From the NCBI RefSeq assembly GCF_056712565.1, contig NZ_CM160072.1: 64,000 nucleotides of DNA. One strand, 5' to 3'. The notes beneath the pieces were generated by a model. The model did not search any database and was not told the origin of the DNA. It worked only from the letters and a program-made list of their open reading frames with translations. Below, in pieces: positions 15,238 to 54,976 of this stretch. Position 1 is the first letter of the stretch. Each line of letters starts with the position of its first letter. The position numbers were made by a program, and so were the translations under genes.

Positions 15238-16338
15238 TCAGGCAAATATCGTCATCAAATAGGCGGCAAACAGTGCCAGATGCGCTGCGCCATTGAGCAC
15301 GTTAGTACGTCCGGTGGAGAAGGAGATATGGCACAGCACTAAAGAGGCCACCATCACCACCATTTCTGGCGCACCAAGTGCAAACTGCAATTCGTTACCC
15401 GTCATAAAGGCAATTAGCGTGACGACAGGTACGGTAAGCGAAATGGTTGCTAACACTGAACCAAAGAACAGATTCATCGCGCGCTGGACCTGGTTGTTCA
15501 ACACTGCTTTTAACGCACCTAAACCTTCCGGCGACAGAATCAACAGAGCCACCAGGAAGCCAGTAAAGGCGACAGGGGCATTCATGCTGTCGAGCAATGT
15601 CTCCAGCGGGCTGGCGTTCATTTTGGTCACCGCAATAACGGCAATCAGATGGACAATCAACCAGATAGCATGCCACAGGCTGCTATGGGCAGACGGTTTA
15701 CCGTGGTGCGGGTCGTCATCATCACTGTCATCTTCGTGCTCGTAGACAAATAAACTTTGATGCGTTTTGGTCTGGATCAGCAAAAATACGCCATACATTG
15801 CCGCAGAAATTAATGCTACCAGTAACGCCTGACCTGTTGAAAAATTCGCCGCAGGCAGAGCCATTGGAAATACCAGTACGATTATCGCCAGGGGGAACAG
15901 CGCAATTAAATACTGCTTGATACCAAACAGATTCATATATTGGGTGGCAAACTTGCGTCCGCCCAACAATAATGAAAAGCCAACCAGCCCACCGGTAACA
16001 ATCATAATGATTGAATAGAGCGTATCACGCATTAGCGTTGGCGCGGCGTCGCCGGTTGCCATTAAAGCTGAAATCAAACTGACTTCAAGAATAACCACTG
16101 AAAGGCTAAGAATAAGCGAACCGTAAGGTTCTCCCAGGCGATGGGCTAATACGTCCGCATGACGGACAACACTAAAGGCGCTACTTAAAATACCAATAAG
16201 CGCAAGAAGATTGATGGCAATGACCACTGGTAGTGTCTGGCTGCCTCCCCACAGGAACAGCACTACCAGCGCCAGAACCGGGAAAATAAGCGAAGTCTCC
16301 TTGTGGCGGGTTTTTACCGCCTCTTGAGCATTTGACAT
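15238..16338 (-). CDS. chaA: Na+(K+)/H+ and Ca2+/H+ antiporter ChaA
   Basis: ORF 15238..16425; start placed at ATG 16338 (MSNAQEAVKTRHKETS...), 366 aa. Confidence 0.92.
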   Translation of the reverse strand: MSNAQEAVKTRHKETSLIFPVLALVVLFLWGGSQTLPVVIAINLLALIGILSSAFSVVRHADVLAHRLGEPYGSLILSLSVVILEVSLISALMATGDAAPTLMRDTLYSIIMIVTGGLVGFSLLLGGRKFATQYMNLFGIKQYLIALFPLAIIVLVFPMALPAANFSTGQALLVALISAAMYGVFLLIQTKTHQSLFVYEHEDDSDDDDPHHGKPSAHSSLWHAIWLIVHLIAVIAVTKMNASPLETLLDSMNAPVAFTGFLVALLILSPEGLGALKAVLNNQVQRAMNLFFGSVLATISLTVPVVTLIAFMTGNELQFALGAPEMVVMVASLVLCHISFSTGRTNVLNGAAHLALFAAYLMTIFA

Positions 16339-16607
16339 TATGGTTATCCCTTTGCAGATGAATTTATCGAAAATGTAAAAAATAGGTAGGAAAAATAACA
16401 GAAATTGTCTGGATATCGGTAACATTTTACGAATTTTTACCCCGCTGTCGATTTTTTACTCATTTGGGCATAAAAATAAGTAATACGTTTAGACAATGTT
16501 TGTTTTAGCACTTCTTAAGAAGAGTCTGACATGAAAATTCTTATGTTTTGGCAAGAGTAGATATTGTTGACCACACTTAATGTTCAACTTTGTAAAAGGA
16601 GTCAACG

Positions 16608-16838
16608 ATGCCGTATAAAACGAAAAGCGATCTGCCGGAAAGCGTAAAGCACGTGCTTCCGTCTCATGCCCAGGATATCTATAAAGAAGCGTTCAACAGC
16701 GCATGGGATCAATATAAAGATAAAGAAGATCGGCGTGATGACGCCAGTCGCGAAGAAACAGCGCATAAAGTGGCCTGGGCTGCTGTGAAGCATGAATATG
16801 CCAAAGGGGATGATGATAAATGGCATAAAAAATCGTAA
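16608..16838 (+). CDS. chaB: Cation transport regulator ChaB
   Basis: 76-aa ORF MPYKTKSDLPESVKHVLPSHAQDIYKEAFN... Confidence 0.9.
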   Translation: MPYKTKSDLPESVKHVLPSHAQDIYKEAFNSAWDQYKDKEDRRDDASREETAHKVAWAAVKHEYAKGDDDKWHKKS

Positions 16839-16995
16839 AACTGGTAGCTTAGTTAAAGCTATTCGTGCGGTGTTGCCTTGCAAGTGGTCCGTGGATTGCA
16901 TATTGTCCCGTTAGTGGTTTCAAAATGAGCAGTAAAAATGTCCGGAAGACACCAAAAAGTTGTCGCAGGGAAGTATGCAGTGGCGGAGGTGTAAG

Positions 16996-17691
16996 GTGAT
17001 AACGCGTGATTTCTTGATGAATGCCGATTGTAAAACGGCATTTGGTGCCATTGAAGAATCACTCTTATGGTCAGCAGAACAACGGGCGGCTTCGCTGGCG
17101 GCGACGCTGGCTTGTCGACCTGATGAGGGACCGGTGTGGATCTTCGGTTATGGATCGTTGATGTGGAATCCGGCACTGGAGTTTACCGAGTCGTGCACCG
17201 GTACACTGGTTGGATGGCATCGCGCGTTTTGCCTGCGCCTGACCGCCGGGCGCGGGACTGCGCACCAGCCGGGACGAATGCTTGCACTGAAAGAGGGCGG
17301 ACGCACCACAGGCGTCGCCTATCGACTGCCAGAAGAGACGCTGGAGCAGGAACTAACCCTGCTGTGGAAGCGCGAGATGATTACCGGCTGTTATCTGCCA
17401 ACCTGGTGTCAGCTTGATCTTGATGATGGACGCACAGTAAACGCCATTGTGTTTATTATGGACCCGCGACATCCAGAATATGAATCTGACACTCGCGCTC
17501 AGGTCATAGCGCCGTTGATTGCGGCGGCGAGCGGTCCGCTGGGAACCAATGCACAATACCTGTTTTCACTGGAACAGGAGCTTATCAAACTGGGAATGCA
17601 GGACGATGGGCTGAATGAATTGCTGGTATCGGTAAAAAAACTGCTGGCGGAGAATTATCCGGATGGTGTGTTACGGCCGGGATTCGCCTGA
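16996..17691 (+). CDS. chaC: Gamma-glutamylcyclotransferase ChaC (glutathione-specific); GTG start
   Basis: ORF 16960..17691; GTG at 16996 preceded by GGAGGTG Shine-Dalgarno gives 231 aa (MITRDFLMNADCK...). Confidence 0.9.
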   Translation: MITRDFLMNADCKTAFGAIEESLLWSAEQRAASLAATLACRPDEGPVWIFGYGSLMWNPALEFTESCTGTLVGWHRAFCLRLTAGRGTAHQPGRMLALKEGGRTTGVAYRLPEETLEQELTLLWKREMITGCYLPTWCQLDLDDGRTVNAIVFIMDPRHPEYESDTRAQVIAPLIAAASGPLGTNAQYLFSLEQELIKLGMQDDGLNELLVSVKKLLAENYPDGVLRPGFA

Positions 17692-40755: not shown

Positions 40756-43431
40756 TTAAGCGGATTTTTTCGCTTTTTTCTCAGCTTTAGCCGGAGCGGC
40801 TTCTTTCTTCGCTGCAGTTTCGCCTTCTACATAATCACGACCGTAGTAAGTATCCAGCAGAATCTGTTTCAGCTCGGAGATCAGCGGGTAACGCGGGTTA
40901 GCGCCGGTGCACTGGTCATCGAATGCATCTTCAGACAGTTTATCCACGTTCGCCAGGAAGTCTGCTTCCTGAACGCCAGCTTCACGGATAGATTTCGGAA
41001 TACCCAGTTCAGCTTTCAGCGTTTCCAGCCATGCCAGCAGTTTCTCGATCTTAGCTGCAGTACGGTCGCCCGGTGCGCTCAGACCCAGGTGGTCGGCAAT
41101 TTCAGCATAACGACGGCGAGCCTGCGGACGGTCATACTGGCTGAATGCAGTCTGCTTGGTCGGGTTGTCATTCGCGTTGTAGCGAATAACGTTACAAATC
41201 AGCAGGGCGTTTGCCAGACCGTGCGGAATATGGAACTGGGAACCCAGTTTGTGCGCCATTGAGTGACATACACCCAGGAAGGCGTTCGCAAACGCGATAC
41301 CCGCGATAGTCGCTGCACTGTGAACACGTTCACGCGCTACCGGATTTTTAGACCCTTCGTGGTAGGACGCTGGCAGATATTCTTTCAGTAGTTTCAGTGC
41401 CTGCAGAGCCTGACCATCAGAGAACTCAGATGCCAGTACAGAAACATAAGCTTCCATGGCGTGAGTTACTGCGTCCAGACCACCGAAAGCACACAGGGAC
41501 TTCGGCATGTCCATAACAAGGTTGGCGTCGACAATCGCCATATCCGGGGTCAGTGCATAGTCTGCCAGCGGATATTTCTGACCAGTAGTGTCGTCAGTTA
41601 CAACCGCAAACGGAGTGACTTCAGAACCTGTACCAGAAGTGGTGGTGACAGCGATCATTTTCGCTTTCACACCCATTTTCGGGAACTTGTAGATACGTTT
41701 ACGGATATCCATAAAGCGCAGCGCCAGTTCTTCGAAGTGAGTTTCCGGATGTTCGTACATAACCCACATGATCTTCGCAGCGTCCATCGGGGAACCACCA
41801 CCCAGCGCGATAATCACGTCTGGTTTGAAGGAGTTTGCCAGTTCTGCACCTTTACGAACGATGCTCAGGGTCGGGTCAGCTTCTACTTCGAAGAAGACTT
41901 CAGTTTCAACGCCTGCTGCTTTCAATACGGAAGTGATCTGATCAGCATAGCCATTGTTGAACAGGAAGCGGTCAGTCACGATGAGCGCACGTTTGTGGCC
42001 ATCAGTAATCACTTCATCCAGCGCGATTGGCAGGGAGCCACGGCGGAAGTAGATAGATTTCGGAAGTTTGTGCCACAACATGTTTTCAGCTCGCTTAGCA
42101 ACGGTTTTCTTGTTGATCAGGTGTTTCGGACCAACGTTTTCAGAGATGGAGTTACCACCCCAGGAACCACAACCCAGAGTCAGGGAAGGTGCGAGTTTGA
42201 AGTTATACAGGTCACCGATACCACCCTGAGAAGCCGGGGTGTTAATCAGGATACGAGCCGTTTTCATTTTCTGACCGAAGTAAGAAACGCGAGCCGGTTG
42301 GTTATCCTGGTCAGTGTACAGGCAAGAGGTATGACCGATACCGCCCATAGCAACCAGTTTCTCTGCTTTTTCTACCGCGTCTTCGAAATCTTTAGCACGG
42401 TACATTGCCAGAGTCGGGGACAGTTTTTCATGTGCGAACGGTTCGCTTTCATCAACAACGGTCACTTCACCGATCAGAATCTTGGTGTTTTCTGGTACAG
42501 AGAAGCCTGCCAGTTCAGCAATTTTATAGGCTGGCTGACCAACGATAGCCGCGTTCAGCGCACCGTTTTTCAGGATAACGTCCTGAACAGCTTTCAGCTC
42601 TTTACCCTGCAACAGATAGCCGCCGTGGGTTGCGAAACGTTCACGTACTGCGTCATAAACAGAGTCAACAACAACAACAGACTGTTCAGAAGCACAGATT
42701 ACACCGTTGTCGAAGGTTTTGGACATCAGTACAGATGCAACTGCACGTTTGATATCAGCAGTTTCATCGATAACAACCGGAGTGTTGCCCGCGCCTACGC
42801 CGATAGCTGGTTTACCGGAGCTGTATGCGGCTTTAACCATGCCCGGACCACCAGTCGCGAGGATCAGGTTGATGTCTGGGTGGTGCATCAGTGCGTTAGA
42901 CAGCTCAACAGAAGGTTGATCGATCCAGCCGATCAGATCTTTCGGAGCACCGGCAGCGATAGCAGCCTGTAGAACGATATCAGCCGCTTTGTTGGTTGCA
43001 TCTTTTGCACGCGGGTGCGGGGAGAAGATAATGGCGTTACGGGTCTTCAGGCTGATCAGCGATTTGAAGATAGCAGTTGAAGTCGGGTTAGTGGTCGGAA
43101 CGATACCGCAAATAATACCGATGGGTTCAGCGATAGTGATGGTACCAAAAGTGTCGTCTTCAGACAGAACACCACAGGTTTTTTCATCTTTATAGGCGTT
43201 GTAAATATATTCAGAAGCAAAGTGGTTTTTGATCACTTTATCTTCGACGATACCCATGCCGGATTCGGCAACGGCCATTTTCGCGAGTGGGATTCGAGCA
43301 TCTGCAGCAGCCAGAGCGGCGGCGCGGAAGATTTTGTCTACTTGCTCTTGAGTGAAACTGGCATATTCACGCTGGGCTTTTTTTACACGCTCTACGAGTG
43401 CGTTAAGTTCAGCGACATTAGTAACAGCCAT
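40756..43431 (-). CDS. adhE: Bifunctional acetaldehyde-CoA/alcohol dehydrogenase AdhE
   Basis: 891-aa [36 protein letters not shown]... Confidence 0.97.
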
Positions 43432-43907
43432 AATGCTCTCCTGATAATGTTAAACTTTTTTAGTAAATCATCTGCTCGAATACGAGAGTATAGTCAGTGC
43501 GGTGATGATTTGCTTAACCGATGGAAATCAAAAGCTTACTCGCGCTCACACTCACTGTGATTTACTAAAAGAGTTTAAACATTAGAGTTATTATCTCTAA
43601 TGCGTCACTTCCAGGTGGCGTAAGCAAGATTACTCACTTCTGGGTACTGATTACGTGATCCAAATCAAAATTTTGCAAAGCTGACACCTTTCAGCATGGC
43701 TTTTCGCCATTATAGCTAACAGTTAATAAATTGTAGTATGATTTGTTGGCTACATTAGCATGTTTTGCACAACTAGGTAACAATAACGAATGATAGCAAT
43801 TTTAAGTAGTTAGGAGGTGAAAAATGCTGTCAAAAGGCGTATTGTCAGCGCGTCTTTTCAACCTTATTTATGGCTAACATTATCCGGCTTTTGCTTCGGA
43901 GCTAACC

Positions 43908-44555
43908 GTGATTCAGACCCTTTTTGATTTTCCCGTTTACTTCAAATTTTTCATCGGGTTATTTGCGCTGGTCAACCCGGTAGGGATTATTCCCGTCTTT
44001 ATCAGCATGACCAGTTATCAGACAGCGGCAGCGCGAAACAAAACTAACCTTACAGCCAACCTGTCTGTGGCCATTATCTTGTGGATCTCGCTTTTTCTCG
44101 GCGACACGATTCTACAACTTTTTGGTATATCAATTGATTCATTCCGTATCGCCGGTGGCATCCTGGTGGTGACAATAGCGATGTCGATGATCAGCGGCAA
44201 GCTTGGTGAGGATAAACAGAACAAGCAAGAAAAATCAGAAACCGCGGTACGTGAAAGCATTGGTGTGGTGCCATTGGCGTTGCCGTTGATGGCGGGGCCA
44301 GGGGCGATCAGTTCTACCATCGTCTGGGGTACGCGTTATCACAGCATTAGCTATCTGTTTGGTTTCTTTGTGGCTATTGCATTGTTCGCTTTATGTTGCT
44401 GGGGATTGTTCCGCATGGCACCGTGGCTGGTACGAGTTTTACGCCAGACCGGCATCAACGTGATTACGCGTATTATGGGGCTATTGCTGATGGCGTTGGG
44501 GATTGAATTTATCGTTACTGGTATTAAGGGGATTTTCCCCGGCCTGCTTAATTAA
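43908..44555 (+). CDS. ychE: MarC-family inner membrane protein YchE
   Basis: 215-aa polytopic membrane ORF. Confidence 0.88.
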   Translation: MIQTLFDFPVYFKFFIGLFALVNPVGIIPVFISMTSYQTAAARNKTNLTANLSVAIILWISLFLGDTILQLFGISIDSFRIAGGILVVTIAMSMISGKLGEDKQNKQEKSETAVRESIGVVPLALPLMAGPGAISSTIVWGTRYHSISYLFGFFVAIALFALCCWGLFRMAPWLVRVLRQTGINVITRIMGLLLMALGIEFIVTGIKGIFPGLLN

Positions 44556-45292
44556 TTCCTTTCAAATGAAACGGAGCTGCCATGCTCCGTTTACTTCGTC
44601 ATTATTTTTACTTTGTTCCTGCGCAGTTATCAAAAGCAAAAGGAATAGGTAAAAATATTCTTCTCAAATTACAGTTAGTTATAGGGATTTCCTTAACTGC
44701 TTCTCCTCACCATCATGTTATTTTCGCCACATCATAATCCTGGGCTTGCTGAAGAATAATTGAAATGATATTAGTAATTCCACTGCCTTTGGTAGAGGAA
44801 AGTGCTAAATAATAATCAATTGTTAAATTATTGTGCATTTCACTACTGGAACTGTAATCAGAAAAGAGAGACATGCTTAACCAACCTCTATTTGATTGAA
44901 TTGAAAGATGTTTGTTAAGGCATGGATGCAAGCTATAGATTCTGATACGGTCAATAAAAGAGAATTGCTTAACAATTTTGCAAAATGTATTGGCGAGTAA
45001 GAACCGCATTTGGTACTTTCCGGGCAACCGCCAGGCGATTCTTTATTGGTAATGAGAATAATTAACAATTAAAGATCGTCGCGAAAGAATAATGTGTCTC
45101 GACAGGGGAGACACAGTACGAATCGACATAAGGTGATCGTCTGAATCACCAGAATAAATAAAGTCGGTGATAGTAATACGTAACGATAAAGTAACCTGAC
45201 AGCAGAAAGTCTCCGAGCCTGTGCAGGGTCCCAATCCGGGATTACACATGCTGGTTAATACCAGTAATTATAATGAGGGAGTCCAAAAAACA

Positions 45293-46924
45293 ATGACCAA
45301 CATCACCAAGAGAAGTTTAGTAGCAGCTGGCGTTTTGGCTGCGCTTATGGCAGGGAATGTCGCGCTGGCAGCTGATGTACCCGCAGGTGTCACACTGGCG
45401 GAAAAACAAACGCTGGTACGTAACAATGGTTCAGAAGTTCAGTCATTAGATCCGCACAAAATTGAAGGTGTTCCGGAGTCTAATATCAGCCGAGACCTGT
45501 TTGAAGGCTTACTGGTCAGCGATCTTGACGGTCATCCGGCACCTGGCGTCGCTGAATCATGGGATAATAAAGACGCGAAAGTCTGGACCTTCCATTTGCG
45601 TAAAGATGCGAAATGGTCTGATGGCACGCCAGTTACAGCACAAGACTTTGTGTATAGCTGGCAACGTTCTGTTGATCCAAACACTGCTTCTCCGTATGCC
45701 AGTTATCTGCAATATGGGCATATCGCCGGTATTGATGAAATTCTTGAAGGGAAAAAACCGATTACCGATCTCGGCGTGAAAGCTATTGATGATCACACAT
45801 TAGAAGTCACCTTAAGTGAACCTGTTCCGTACTTCTATAAATTACTTGTTCACCCATCAACTTCACCGGTGCCAAAAGCCGCTATCGAGAAATTCGGCGA
45901 AAAATGGACCCAGCCTGGTAATATCGTCACCAACGGTGCCTATACCTTAAAAGATTGGGTCGTAAACGAACGAATCGTTCTTGAACGCAGCCCGACCTAC
46001 TGGAACAACGCGAAAACCGTTATTAACCAGGTAACCTATTTGCCTATTGCTTCTGAAGTTACCGATGTCAACCGCTACCGTAGTGGTGAAATCGACATGA
46101 CTTATAACAACATGCCGATCGAATTGTTCCAGAAGCTGAAAAAAGAGATCCCGGACGAAGTTCACGTTGATCCATACCTGTGCACTTACTATTACGAAAT
46201 TAACAACCAGAAACCGCCATTTAATGACGTGCGTGTGCGTACCGCACTGAAATTGGGTATGGACCGCGATATCATTGTTAATAAAGTGAAAGCGCAGGGC
46301 GACATGCCCGCCTATGGTTACACTCCACCATATACTGATGGCGCAAAATTGACTCAGCCGGAATGGTTTGGCTGGAGCCAGGAAAAACGTAACGAAGAAG
46401 CGAAAAAACTGCTGGCTGAAGCGGGTTATACCGCAGACAAACCGTTGACCATCAACCTGTTGTATAACACCTCCGATCTGCATAAAAAGCTGGCGATTGC
46501 TGCCTCTTCATTGTGGAAGAAAAACATTGGTGTAAACGTCAAACTGGTTAACCAGGAGTGGAAAACGTTCCTCGACACCCGTCACCAGGGCACTTTTGAT
46601 GTGGCCCGTGCAGGCTGGTGTGCAGACTACAACGAACCAACTTCCTTCCTGAACACCATGCTGTCGAACAGCTCAATGAATACCGCGCATTATAAGAGCC
46701 CGGCCTTTGACAGCATTATGGCGGAAACGCTGAAAGTGACTGACGAGGCGCAGCGTACAGCTCTGTACACTAAAGCAGAACAACAGCTGGATAAGGATTC
46801 GGCCATTGTTCCTGTTTATTACTACGTGAATGCGCGTTTGGTGAAACCGTGGGTTGGTGGCTATACCGGCAAAGATCCGCTGGATAATACCTACACCCGG
46901 AATATGTACATTGTGAAGCACTAA
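45293..46924 (+). CDS. oppA: Periplasmic oligopeptide-binding protein OppA
   Basis: ORF 45221..46924; start placed at ATG 45293 (MTNITKRSLVAAGVLAALMAGNVALA signal), 543 aa. Confidence 0.95.
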   Translation: MTNITKRSLVAAGVLAALMAGNVALAADVPAGVTLAEKQTLVRNNGSEVQSLDPHKIEGVPESNISRDLFEGLLVSDLDGHPAPGVAESWDNKDAKVWTFHLRKDAKWSDGTPVTAQDFVYSWQRSVDPNTASPYASYLQYGHIAGIDEILEGKKPITDLGVKAIDDHTLEVTLSEPVPYFYKLLVHPSTSPVPKAAIEKFGEKWTQPGNIVTNGAYTLKDWVVNERIVLERSPTYWNNAKTVINQVTYLPIASEVTDVNRYRSGEIDMTYNNMPIELFQKLKKEIPDEVHVDPYLCTYYYEINNQKPPFNDVRVRTALKLGMDRDIIVNKVKAQGDMPAYGYTPPYTDGAKLTQPEWFGWSQEKRNEEAKKLLAEAGYTADKPLTINLLYNTSDLHKKLAIAASSLWKKNIGVNVKLVNQEWKTFLDTRHQGTFDVARAGWCADYNEPTSFLNTMLSNSSMNTAHYKSPAFDSIMAETLKVTDEAQRTALYTKAEQQLDKDSAIVPVYYYVNARLVKPWVGGYTGKDPLDNTYTRNMYIVKH

Positions 46925-53126: not shown

Positions 53127-54380
53127 CTATTTTTGCGCCGATTCTTTACTGTCAGCTTTCGTTTCTTGTTCATCGTTATCGCTGAAAATGCCATGACCGG
53201 AGTTCAACAACATTGAAACGAGCATATCATTATTAATCTCTTCACCATTTAAAACTCGCGCCAGAATTTCGCTGCCAAACAGTTGTGGTGAGAGAATGAT
53301 ATCCGGATGTACCATCTTAATCTTATTCAGGTTTTTGCTATCACTGACGGCGAGAACTGTTTTGACATCACTGCTCATATCTTTTGCCGAGAGTACAACA
53401 AACGCGTTATCTGCATCGTTATCACTCAGCGCCAGAATGGCCCGGCAACGATCGATTCCCGCTTTCTTTAACACTGAACTGTCATTACTGTCACCGGGGA
53501 TAACATCGGCGTTATCGCCTAAGCGTTGCTCAAGTTGCTTGATATCATCTTCAGGCAAGTTGCTGATAACCGTTACGTTTTGTCCGCGTTGATTCAGTTG
53601 CAGAATCGTATTGATGGCGAGAATCGAATGTCCGCAAACAATAAAATGATCTTTACGATGCATTGTATGATTGTTTCCTTTTACAAGTTTGTTGAATCCC
53701 CCGCGGATAAGCGGACCAAAAATTGAGGTCATAGATGTGGCAAAAACGGTAATGCCGGAAATAATGACCGAAATAGTGAACAATCGTGCTGATTCAGAAA
53801 CAGGGACAATATCGCCATAGCCGACGGTTGACATGGTTTCTATCGAAAAATAGAACGCGGTCATCAAACTTTCTATTCGCGGATTAAAACCTTCGCTTAA
53901 ATAAAGCGCACCGTAAGTGGAGTAAAATAGTAACGTCGTGAAACTAATAAATGCGAAAATTGTCCCGGCTGCTGCGCTACTGTGGGAGAAGTCTTTGCGC
54001 AGTATCAGCAAAAACACCAGCGTAAAAATGCAAAATCCAATACTAAATTTCAGCCAGGGATAAAAATGCAGAGTGTAAATTAGCGCTATCAACAACAAAA
54101 TGATACTGATTGCCCATGCGAGCTTTGCCCGGAACAGTAAGCCAATGGAGTTCAGGACAAGAAATACGCCGAGCATAAAGAGTGGGGCGTTTGCCAGCAA
54201 GGAGAGATCCAGCTCTGAAAATGCTTTGATATGGAAAATATCAAGCAAATTGACCGACATACCATAGATTGTTTTAAAAATAAGCAATCCATTTAAAAAG
54301 ACGGCCAGCGCGAGAATGTCGTGCCGTAGGGTCACCCATAACTTTGTTGCTGTTTGTTTGAATGTAGTCCAGTGACTCAC
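53127..54380 (-). CDS. kch: Voltage-gated potassium channel Kch; GTG start
   Basis: ORF 53127..54398; GTG at 54380 gives 417 aa; K-channel selectivity filter TVGYGD and TrkA-N/RCK domain. Confidence 0.92.
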   Translation of the reverse strand: MSHWTTFKQTATKLWVTLRHDILALAVFLNGLLIFKTIYGMSVNLLDIFHIKAFSELDLSLLANAPLFMLGVFLVLNSIGLLFRAKLAWAISIILLLIALIYTLHFYPWLKFSIGFCIFTLVFLLILRKDFSHSSAAAGTIFAFISFTTLLFYSTYGALYLSEGFNPRIESLMTAFYFSIETMSTVGYGDIVPVSESARLFTISVIISGITVFATSMTSIFGPLIRGGFNKLVKGNNHTMHRKDHFIVCGHSILAINTILQLNQRGQNVTVISNLPEDDIKQLEQRLGDNADVIPGDSNDSSVLKKAGIDRCRAILALSDNDADNAFVVLSAKDMSSDVKTVLAVSDSKNLNKIKMVHPDIILSPQLFGSEILARVLNGEEINNDMLVSMLLNSGHGIFSDNDEQETKADSKESAQK

Positions 54381-54679
54381 TGATACCTCTGTAACCACAA
54401 TTTTGTTTAATTATCTCAACGTGCACATTTTCTGAACATACATGCAGCGCGTGAATGTGTTAAACAATAGTAGATGACTTTATCCGCAGTAATCAAAGGT
54501 TTTGAGTGAGCAACTCTGCGTCAGGAAAGGGCATTTTCCTGAATATGTTCACATCATATAAAGAAATACAGATAAAGTTATTATCTGCTTGTGGTGGTGA
54601 ATGCACTGACCGACCTATAAGGAAAGGCCAAACAAGAACACGGTTGCAAAAACCGTGCCCTTAAATATTGAATTTCTAT

Positions 54680-54976
54680 TCAGAACACTTTCTTAAATGG
54701 TTTCACTGAAACGTGTTCATAGACTCCTGCCGCTACGTACGGGTCAGCATCGGCCCAGGCCTGAGCTGCTTCCAGCGACTCAAATTCAGCAATAACGGTT
54801 GAGCCAGTAAATCCCGCAGCCCCTGGATCGTTACTGTCTACCGCTGGCATTGGACCGGCGGTCAACAAACGACCTTCATCATGCAGTAACTGTAAACGTG
54901 CCAAATGTGCCGGACGAACGGAAAGGCGTTTTTCGAGGCTATCAGCTTTGTCTTGAGCGTAAATAACATACAACAC
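54680..54976 (-). CDS. yciI: YciI-like protein (98 aa, dimeric alpha/beta barrel family); GTG start
   Basis: ORF 54680..55072; start at GTG 54976 inferred from the conserved length. Confidence 0.8.

Follow-up and report, generated by a model that had tools for sequence, protein, structure and literature searches.

The AT-rich ychE-oppA interval of Escherichia coli is most probably a non-coding control region of the oppABCDF operon

What does the long AT-rich interval between ychE and oppA do, and is the minus-strand open reading frame (ORF) that it contains a gene? The oppA locus is a textbook case of layered control of a transporter operon, with Lrp, GcvB, MicF, Hfq, RNase E and polyamines all taking part. 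It is an already known locus whose promoter and leader are well studied, and the K-12 promoter and 5' leader were reportedly described by Igarashi et al. in 1997. We addressed both questions in a window of 64,000 nucleotides, the whole stretch of DNA analysed here, which represents E. coli ATCC 11775 (NZ_CP033092.2, 100% identity) and in which the gene order at the locus is adhE-ychT-ychE-oppA. We conclude, with a probability of roughly 0.93, that the interval is a non-coding control region of the oppABCDF operon.

Composition of the interval and placement of the published leader map

The spacer spans positions 44556–45292 (737 bp) between ychE (43908–44555, plus strand) and the oppA start codon (ATG at 45293). 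Its GC content is 0.374, compared to 0.497 for the whole window, and no other GC trough in the 64 kb is deeper: equally low values are found in 0.12% of all 737-nt segments. The first-pass annotation had singled out this interval for its AT-richness, and these values bear it out. Coordinates, composition and conservation of length all mark it as the promoter and leader region of oppABCDF rather than as coding sequence. GC is 0.33–0.38 in the promoter half, and the AT-richness would reflect a high density of promoter, UP-like and nucleoid-protein sites together with an AU-rich leader RNA. When extended by 100 nt on each side (937 nt), the spacer is 98–100% identical across ~5,300 E. coli genomes. 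Thirteen of its 5,525 matching places lie in records labelled as plasmids, which may be mislabelled replicons or F-prime-like elements. Elsewhere in the window, GC falls to ≤0.40 over 737 nt at 43326–44156, which is the adhE-ychE divergent promoter spacer, at 16330–17068 and at 53978–54739. Just upstream of ychE, the gene for the 17-codon small protein YchT (43824–43877) carries the RefSeq gene name 'ychE', an apparent labelling slip.

Published K-12 data provide a detailed map of the leader. Transcription of oppA starts at P1 (+1) and P2 (+246), what used to be called 'P3' (+341) is a cleavage site of RNase E and not a start, and lead probing gave a MicF footprint at +372..+392 (Carrier, Lalaouna & Masse 2023, PMC9988348). 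The strains behind all transcript and binding data are K-12 or W3110, and these data were placed on the window via near-identical sequence. As the coordinate anchor we used primer EM4528 (T7, RNA from +341), which reads ATCGACATAAGG and corresponds to position 45122. All of the primers EM4528, EM5064, EM1320 and EM4516 from the same study (PMC9988348) map to the window and agree with the landmark map. With the published numbering and these primers, the P1 start is placed at 44782, which gives a 511-nt leader and puts the oppA ATG at +512, and the P2 start at 45027, which gives a 266-nt leader. The RNase E site falls at 45122 on the plus strand, based on both the text of PMC9988348 and primer EM4528.

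Around these starts, putative promoter hexamers can be assigned. The P1 promoter (44746–44782, plus strand) would consist of a -35 element TTGCTG (44746–44751) and a -10 element TATTAG (44769–44774) upstream of the published start, an A at 44782, and its core, GAAATGATATTAGTAAT, is nearly invariant across genera. The P2 block (44950–45027, plus strand) contains a conserved upstream element, AAAAGAGAAtTGcTTAACAA, followed by a likely -35 element TTGGCG (44990–44995), a likely extended -10 element TGgTACTTT (45011–45019) and the start at 45027; TTGGCG-18-TACTTT is also the commonest hexamer pair at P2 across species. Further downstream, GAATCGAC around the RNase E site is invariant across genera, and the Shine-Dalgarno sequence GAGGGAG (45275–45281) lies 11 nt before the oppA ATG. 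The claim that the region holds the oppA promoter and a long 5' leader therefore stands, with the published P1, P2, RNase E and MicF landmarks all placed within the spacer. The K-12 5' UTR, which had been proposed as the comparison to make, is collinear with the window and differs at 12 of 937 positions once an IS5 copy is removed (98.7% identical); it is the same locus, with P1, P2, the RNase E, MicF and GcvB sites and the Shine-Dalgarno sequence all at corresponding positions.

Conservation and RNA structure across the Enterobacteriaceae

We fetched oppA loci from 80 Enterobacteriaceae species, including 74 non-Escherichia species in which the locus includes ychE, and aligned the window with these 74 and with three sister Escherichia lineages (n = 78). 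The spacer is 713–878 bp long with a GC content of 0.34–0.44 in all 74 other species, and constrained and free segments alternate along the alignment. Identity to the window is 0.82 for P1 -37..-1, 0.84 for P1 +17..+54, 0.79 for P2 -77..-1 and 0.70 for the segment from the RNase E site to the MicF site (45116–45175), compared to 0.49 at third codon positions of oppA and 0.89 at first and second codon positions. Between these blocks, identity is 0.34–0.47 (including 44592–44725 and 44836–44949), and these stretches drift at or below the neutral rate. The block at +17..+54 (44798–44835, plus strand), which contains AATTGTTAA, is conserved to the level of a promoter (84% identity versus 49% at oppA third positions), yet it lies inside the P1 transcript; a literature search found no published function for it.

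Three hairpins are conserved across the alignment. The first lies at the 3' end of ychE (44571–44590, plus strand) and is terminator-like with a weak T tail; RNAalifold identified it with compensatory AU/GC, GC/AU and CG/UA pairs (n = 78), and a simple terminator scan had missed it because its T-run is poor. The second is a leader hairpin at +312..+334 (45093–45115, plus strand), 7 nt upstream of the RNase E site. Joint alignment gave no consensus for it because of a one-column register shift, and it was assessed by folding each species singly: it is stable in all 78 sequences, with a mean minimum free energy of -13.2 kcal/mol and a mean z of -3.5 (below -2 in 75/78). Its stems are divergent yet compensating between species, its GACAGGG loop is conserved, and an excess of G:U over A:C pairs points to the plus strand. 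A terminator-like call on the minus strand at the same place (45115–45093) was rejected, as the plus-strand leader hairpin fits better given the G:U bias and an A-rich 5' flank that is unconserved. The third is small and lies shortly before the Shine-Dalgarno sequence (45251–45264, plus strand); it was identified by RNAalifold, is paired in 71–78 of the 78 sequences and alternates between CG/UA/UG and GC/GU/AU pairs. Taken together, the length, the promoter blocks, the +17..+54 block, the RNase E/MicF segment and the three hairpins are kept across the Enterobacteriaceae, and the architecture of the spacer is ancient.

Other candidate structures were also considered. RNAalifold found no consensus structure for +1..+246. 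A hairpin enclosing P1 (CTGnnnn...nnnnCAG) looked compelling in a few species and was rejected, with ~0 kcal/mol by RNAalifold, 64.7% paired cells and inner pairs that are unpaired in 35–70%. A candidate long-range stem could join AATTGTTAA (44818–44826) to TTAACAATT (44969–44977); both arms are nearly invariant, with most species carrying TTAACAAAT. Many genera have a conserved GATGAGAAT followed by a variable hairpin, which is degenerate in E. coli. The P2 leader of the window also contains a six-codon mini-ORF, ATGAGAATAATTAACAATTAA (45052–45072), with an ATG in 69/78 sequences, the six-codon length in 40/78 and no Shine-Dalgarno sequence. Among the 78 sequences, no upstream ORF or leader peptide with conserved start and length was found on either strand, and this mini-ORF came closest.

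Small RNAs, binding proteins and possible additional transcripts

To place the small RNA sites, we slid the 5' end of K-12 MicF and the R1 region of GcvB (GcvB nt 56–100) along the whole leader using RNAduplex. The best MicF duplex (45141–45175, +360..+394, plus strand; -24.8 kcal/mol) covers the published footprint, which corresponds to a core at 45153–45173. The best GcvB R1 duplex (45279–45317, +498..+536, plus strand; -27.4 kcal/mol) lies across the ribosome-binding site and start codon, and this predicted pairing region runs past the end of the interval into oppA. Binding of GcvB at the oppA ribosome-binding site is stated in the literature, and GcvB and Hfq act there in published K-12 experiments. 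The first-pass annotation was thus right to name GcvB as acting on this leader, with the best predicted site at the leader's 3' end; the far-upstream small RNA site is that of MicF, not of GcvB. This arrangement shows no notable difference from other GcvB-repressed ABC-transporter mRNAs (dppA and others), which resemble oppA in that the sequence at their ribosome-binding site and first codons is C/A-rich and complementary to the G/U-rich R1 (PMC12152304): the site is at or after the end of the interval and not deep in the leader. MicF, in turn, activates oppA translation in E. coli K-12 (PMC9988348), and its binding segment is conserved within the leader as part of the 45116–45175 segment (70% identity across genera). 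RNAalifold additionally pairs an invariant AUCGAC at the RNase E site (45122–45127) with GUCGGU within the MicF site (45163–45168); all six pairs are present in 77–78 of the 78 sequences, with zero covariation. A real pairing of this kind would link the binding of MicF to the access of RNase E.

Several proteins have been placed on the spacer experimentally. ChIP places Lrp at the oppA promoter in two peaks that are lost with leucine, and Lrp represses this promoter without leucine (PMC10127797; bioRxiv 10.1101/276808). The Lrp consensus gave an unconvincing match to the invariant GATATTAGTA core. For H-NS, the spacer appears as 'ychE > HNS > oppA' among those with an in vitro genomic-SELEX site (Shimada et al. 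2014, PMC3946193 Table 3), and a literature search found no in vivo H-NS ChIP data for it; in vivo binding is better documented for Lrp than for H-NS. Genomic SELEX also shows binding of sigma-70 holoenzyme to the spacer (PMC3946193). The promoter predicted in that study, TTAACA-17-AAGAAT, corresponds to 45062–45090 and was also called by our consensus promoter scan. We rejected it as a general oppA promoter, since it is E. coli-specific (at least 8/12 consensus positions in only 13/78 species) and matches no mapped start. In its Lrp peaks, HNS mark, sigma-70 site and low GC, the oppA spacer resembles other Lrp-repressed, H-NS-marked AT-rich spacers of E. coli, whereas it differs from typical H-NS-silenced xenogeneic DNA in its ancestral origin and in the purifying selection that acts on it throughout the family.

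Could the interval, besides serving as promoter and leader, also encode separate regulatory RNAs? These might be an OppX-like processed MicF sponge, an antisense RNA running from 44838–44809 into P1, or both, and we regard this as possible, if on the unlikely side. In Salmonella, the oppA leader is described as yielding OppX, a MicF sponge with forms of 410, 190 and 109 nt (Matera et al. 2022, as presented in PMC9988348), and the MicF-complementary segment, the flanking GAATCGAC and the covarying hairpin at +312..+334 are common to the window, Salmonella and all other genera. An Hfq-dependent 'ychE-oppA' small RNA in E. coli has also been attributed to RNA-seq data (Raghavan et al. 2011, as cited in PMC4070566). 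However, in E. coli K-12 Carrier et al. detected no stable fragment derived from the leader (PMC9988348), a difference from the stable Salmonella species as far as that account of it goes, and no Rfam family matches the interval. Searching Rfam at E ≤ 1 gave chance matches only (plant miR399, NrrF and SCARNA7), which were rejected because all fall far below their gathering scores.

The antisense part of this alternative draws on a promoter-like element that our consensus scan predicts on the minus strand at 44809–44838 (TGCACA/ATGCAC, a 17–18-nt spacer and TATTAT). At the aligned position, at least 8 of 12 consensus positions are present in 47 of the 78 species, which would favour a genuine site, but AT-rich conserved DNA is promoter-like by composition alone and the scan returned 4 sites versus 2.6 expected. 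That the +17..+54 block is itself a conserved minus-strand sigma-70 promoter (TTGCAC/TGCACA, 17–18 nt, TATTAT) rather than leader RNA, firing at ~44802 head-on into P1, seems improbable to us on this sequence pattern. If true, interference between convergent promoters, or a short antisense RNA, would govern oppA P1 throughout the Enterobacteriaceae. Such a promoter would be hidden in K-12, because an IS5 lies between its -10 element and its start and because the K-12 P1 carries an up-variant of its -10 element.

The minus-strand reading frame and the peculiarities of K-12

The interval had been described as containing a 104-aa minus-strand ORF of low-complexity composition that was not believed to be a gene. 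The ORF itself is there (44713–45027, minus strand): it encodes 104 aa from a TTG start, 98 aa from an ATG at 45009 and 53 aa from an ATG at 44874, according to the ORF list and PGAP. The description as low-complexity did not hold, with 4.0 bits of residue entropy and a composition that shows the S/L/I/K/N/Y bias of translated AT-rich DNA. In the genome of the window, RefSeq/PGAP annotates the C-terminal 53 codons (44713–44874) as hypothetical protein WP_000051910.1. PGAP calls among near-identical E. coli genomes vary between 53 aa (WP_000051910.1 and WP_000021850.1), 98 aa (WP_001211521.1) and nothing.

We consider it very unlikely that this ORF, in its 53- or 98-aa form, represents a genuine small protein gene that is young, specific to E. 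coli and lies antisense over oppA P1. PGAP does annotate it in most RefSeq E. coli genomes, a GAGG is located 10 nt upstream of the ATG at 44874, and the frame is open in 8 of the 10 E. coli alleles examined, but the other two carry a natural nonsense allele (S42*), the annotation switches between two lengths and none, and in K-12 an IS5 sits inside the ORF and splits it. Within the species, the 10 alleles show 6 synonymous and 8 non-synonymous changes where 20% synonymous would be expected; these changes are few and confounded by regulatory constraint, and the few variable sites lie outside the regulatory blocks, which accounts for the frame's apparent constraint. Across species, a start codon followed by an uninterrupted frame at the aligned position is found in the window only (1/78 sequences). 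In the closest sister lineage (L007), the start codon of the 53-aa form reads ATA and the long form is interrupted by a stop at its codon 15; frameshifts are present in E. whittamii and a further sister lineage (L006), and all 74 other species have the frame shifted or stopped. These interruptions occur even where the DNA is 80–90% identical, and therefore the conservation ignores the minus-strand frame.

Searches with the ORF were similarly negative. No family was matched in Pfam, NCBIfam or PHROGs, and in a search of 5.8 billion proteins the relatives were exclusively Escherichia and Shigella copies of the same locus. The consensus scan gave no promoter-like site upstream of either minus-strand start, and a literature search found no published evidence of translation. 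We conclude that the ORF is almost certainly a chance frame, as the original doubt about it had anticipated from less: it is unconserved even within the genus, has a natural nonsense allele and matches no family. RefSeq has very probably called a false gene in placing a hypothetical protein inside the interval in thousands of E. coli genomes, and the ORF would be a by-product of an AT-rich frame that happens to lack stops in E. coli. Least credible of all is that the interval, instead of being a purpose-built leader, is a dead gene or the decayed remains of DNA gained by horizontal transfer, kept silent by H-NS. In favour of this are a GC content lower than in any other stretch of the window, a SELEX H-NS mark (PMC3946193), repeated insertion-sequence arrivals (IS5 in K-12, ISSen4 in NCTC122) and an ORF without known relatives. 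However, it has zero protein similarity in any frame, and 74 other species across the family have a spacer of the same length, with the same blocks in the same order, at the ychE-oppA junction; it is therefore ancestral, not acquired.

K-12 itself departs from this shared plan. In MG1655, IS5U (insH21; NC_000913.3 1299499–1300693) is inserted at CTAA 44805–44808, corresponding to +24..+27 of the P1 leader, and puts 1.2 kb between P1 and oppA, in contrast to ATCC 11775 and most E. coli, which are without IS5 in this leader. Strain NCTC122 (NZ_LT906474.1) has an IS3-family element, ISSen4, in the same spacer at ~44945. The spacer is split in ~1.6% of records, so that this AT-rich region is a recurrent target of insertion sequences. 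K-12 also differs from the window at position 44774 in the presumed P1 -10 element, with TATTAT (T) in place of TATTAG (G). TATTAG is found in 5,060 of 5,426 complete E. coli genomes, and each of the 77 sequences aligned with the window has it too. TATTAT, which is closer to the -10 consensus, occurs in 349 of the 5,426 and, among the matches listed, largely in K-12 laboratory strains and their derivatives. The strength or exact start of P1 could therefore differ from that in K-12, and P1 strength as measured in K-12 may not be representative of the species.

Beyond an annotation error and these peculiarities of K-12, the finding is of minor importance. The family-wide alignment shows where constraint falls within the 737 bp, and K-12 is unrepresentative at the oppA leader, which is relevant when results on the K-12 leader are set against those from Salmonella.
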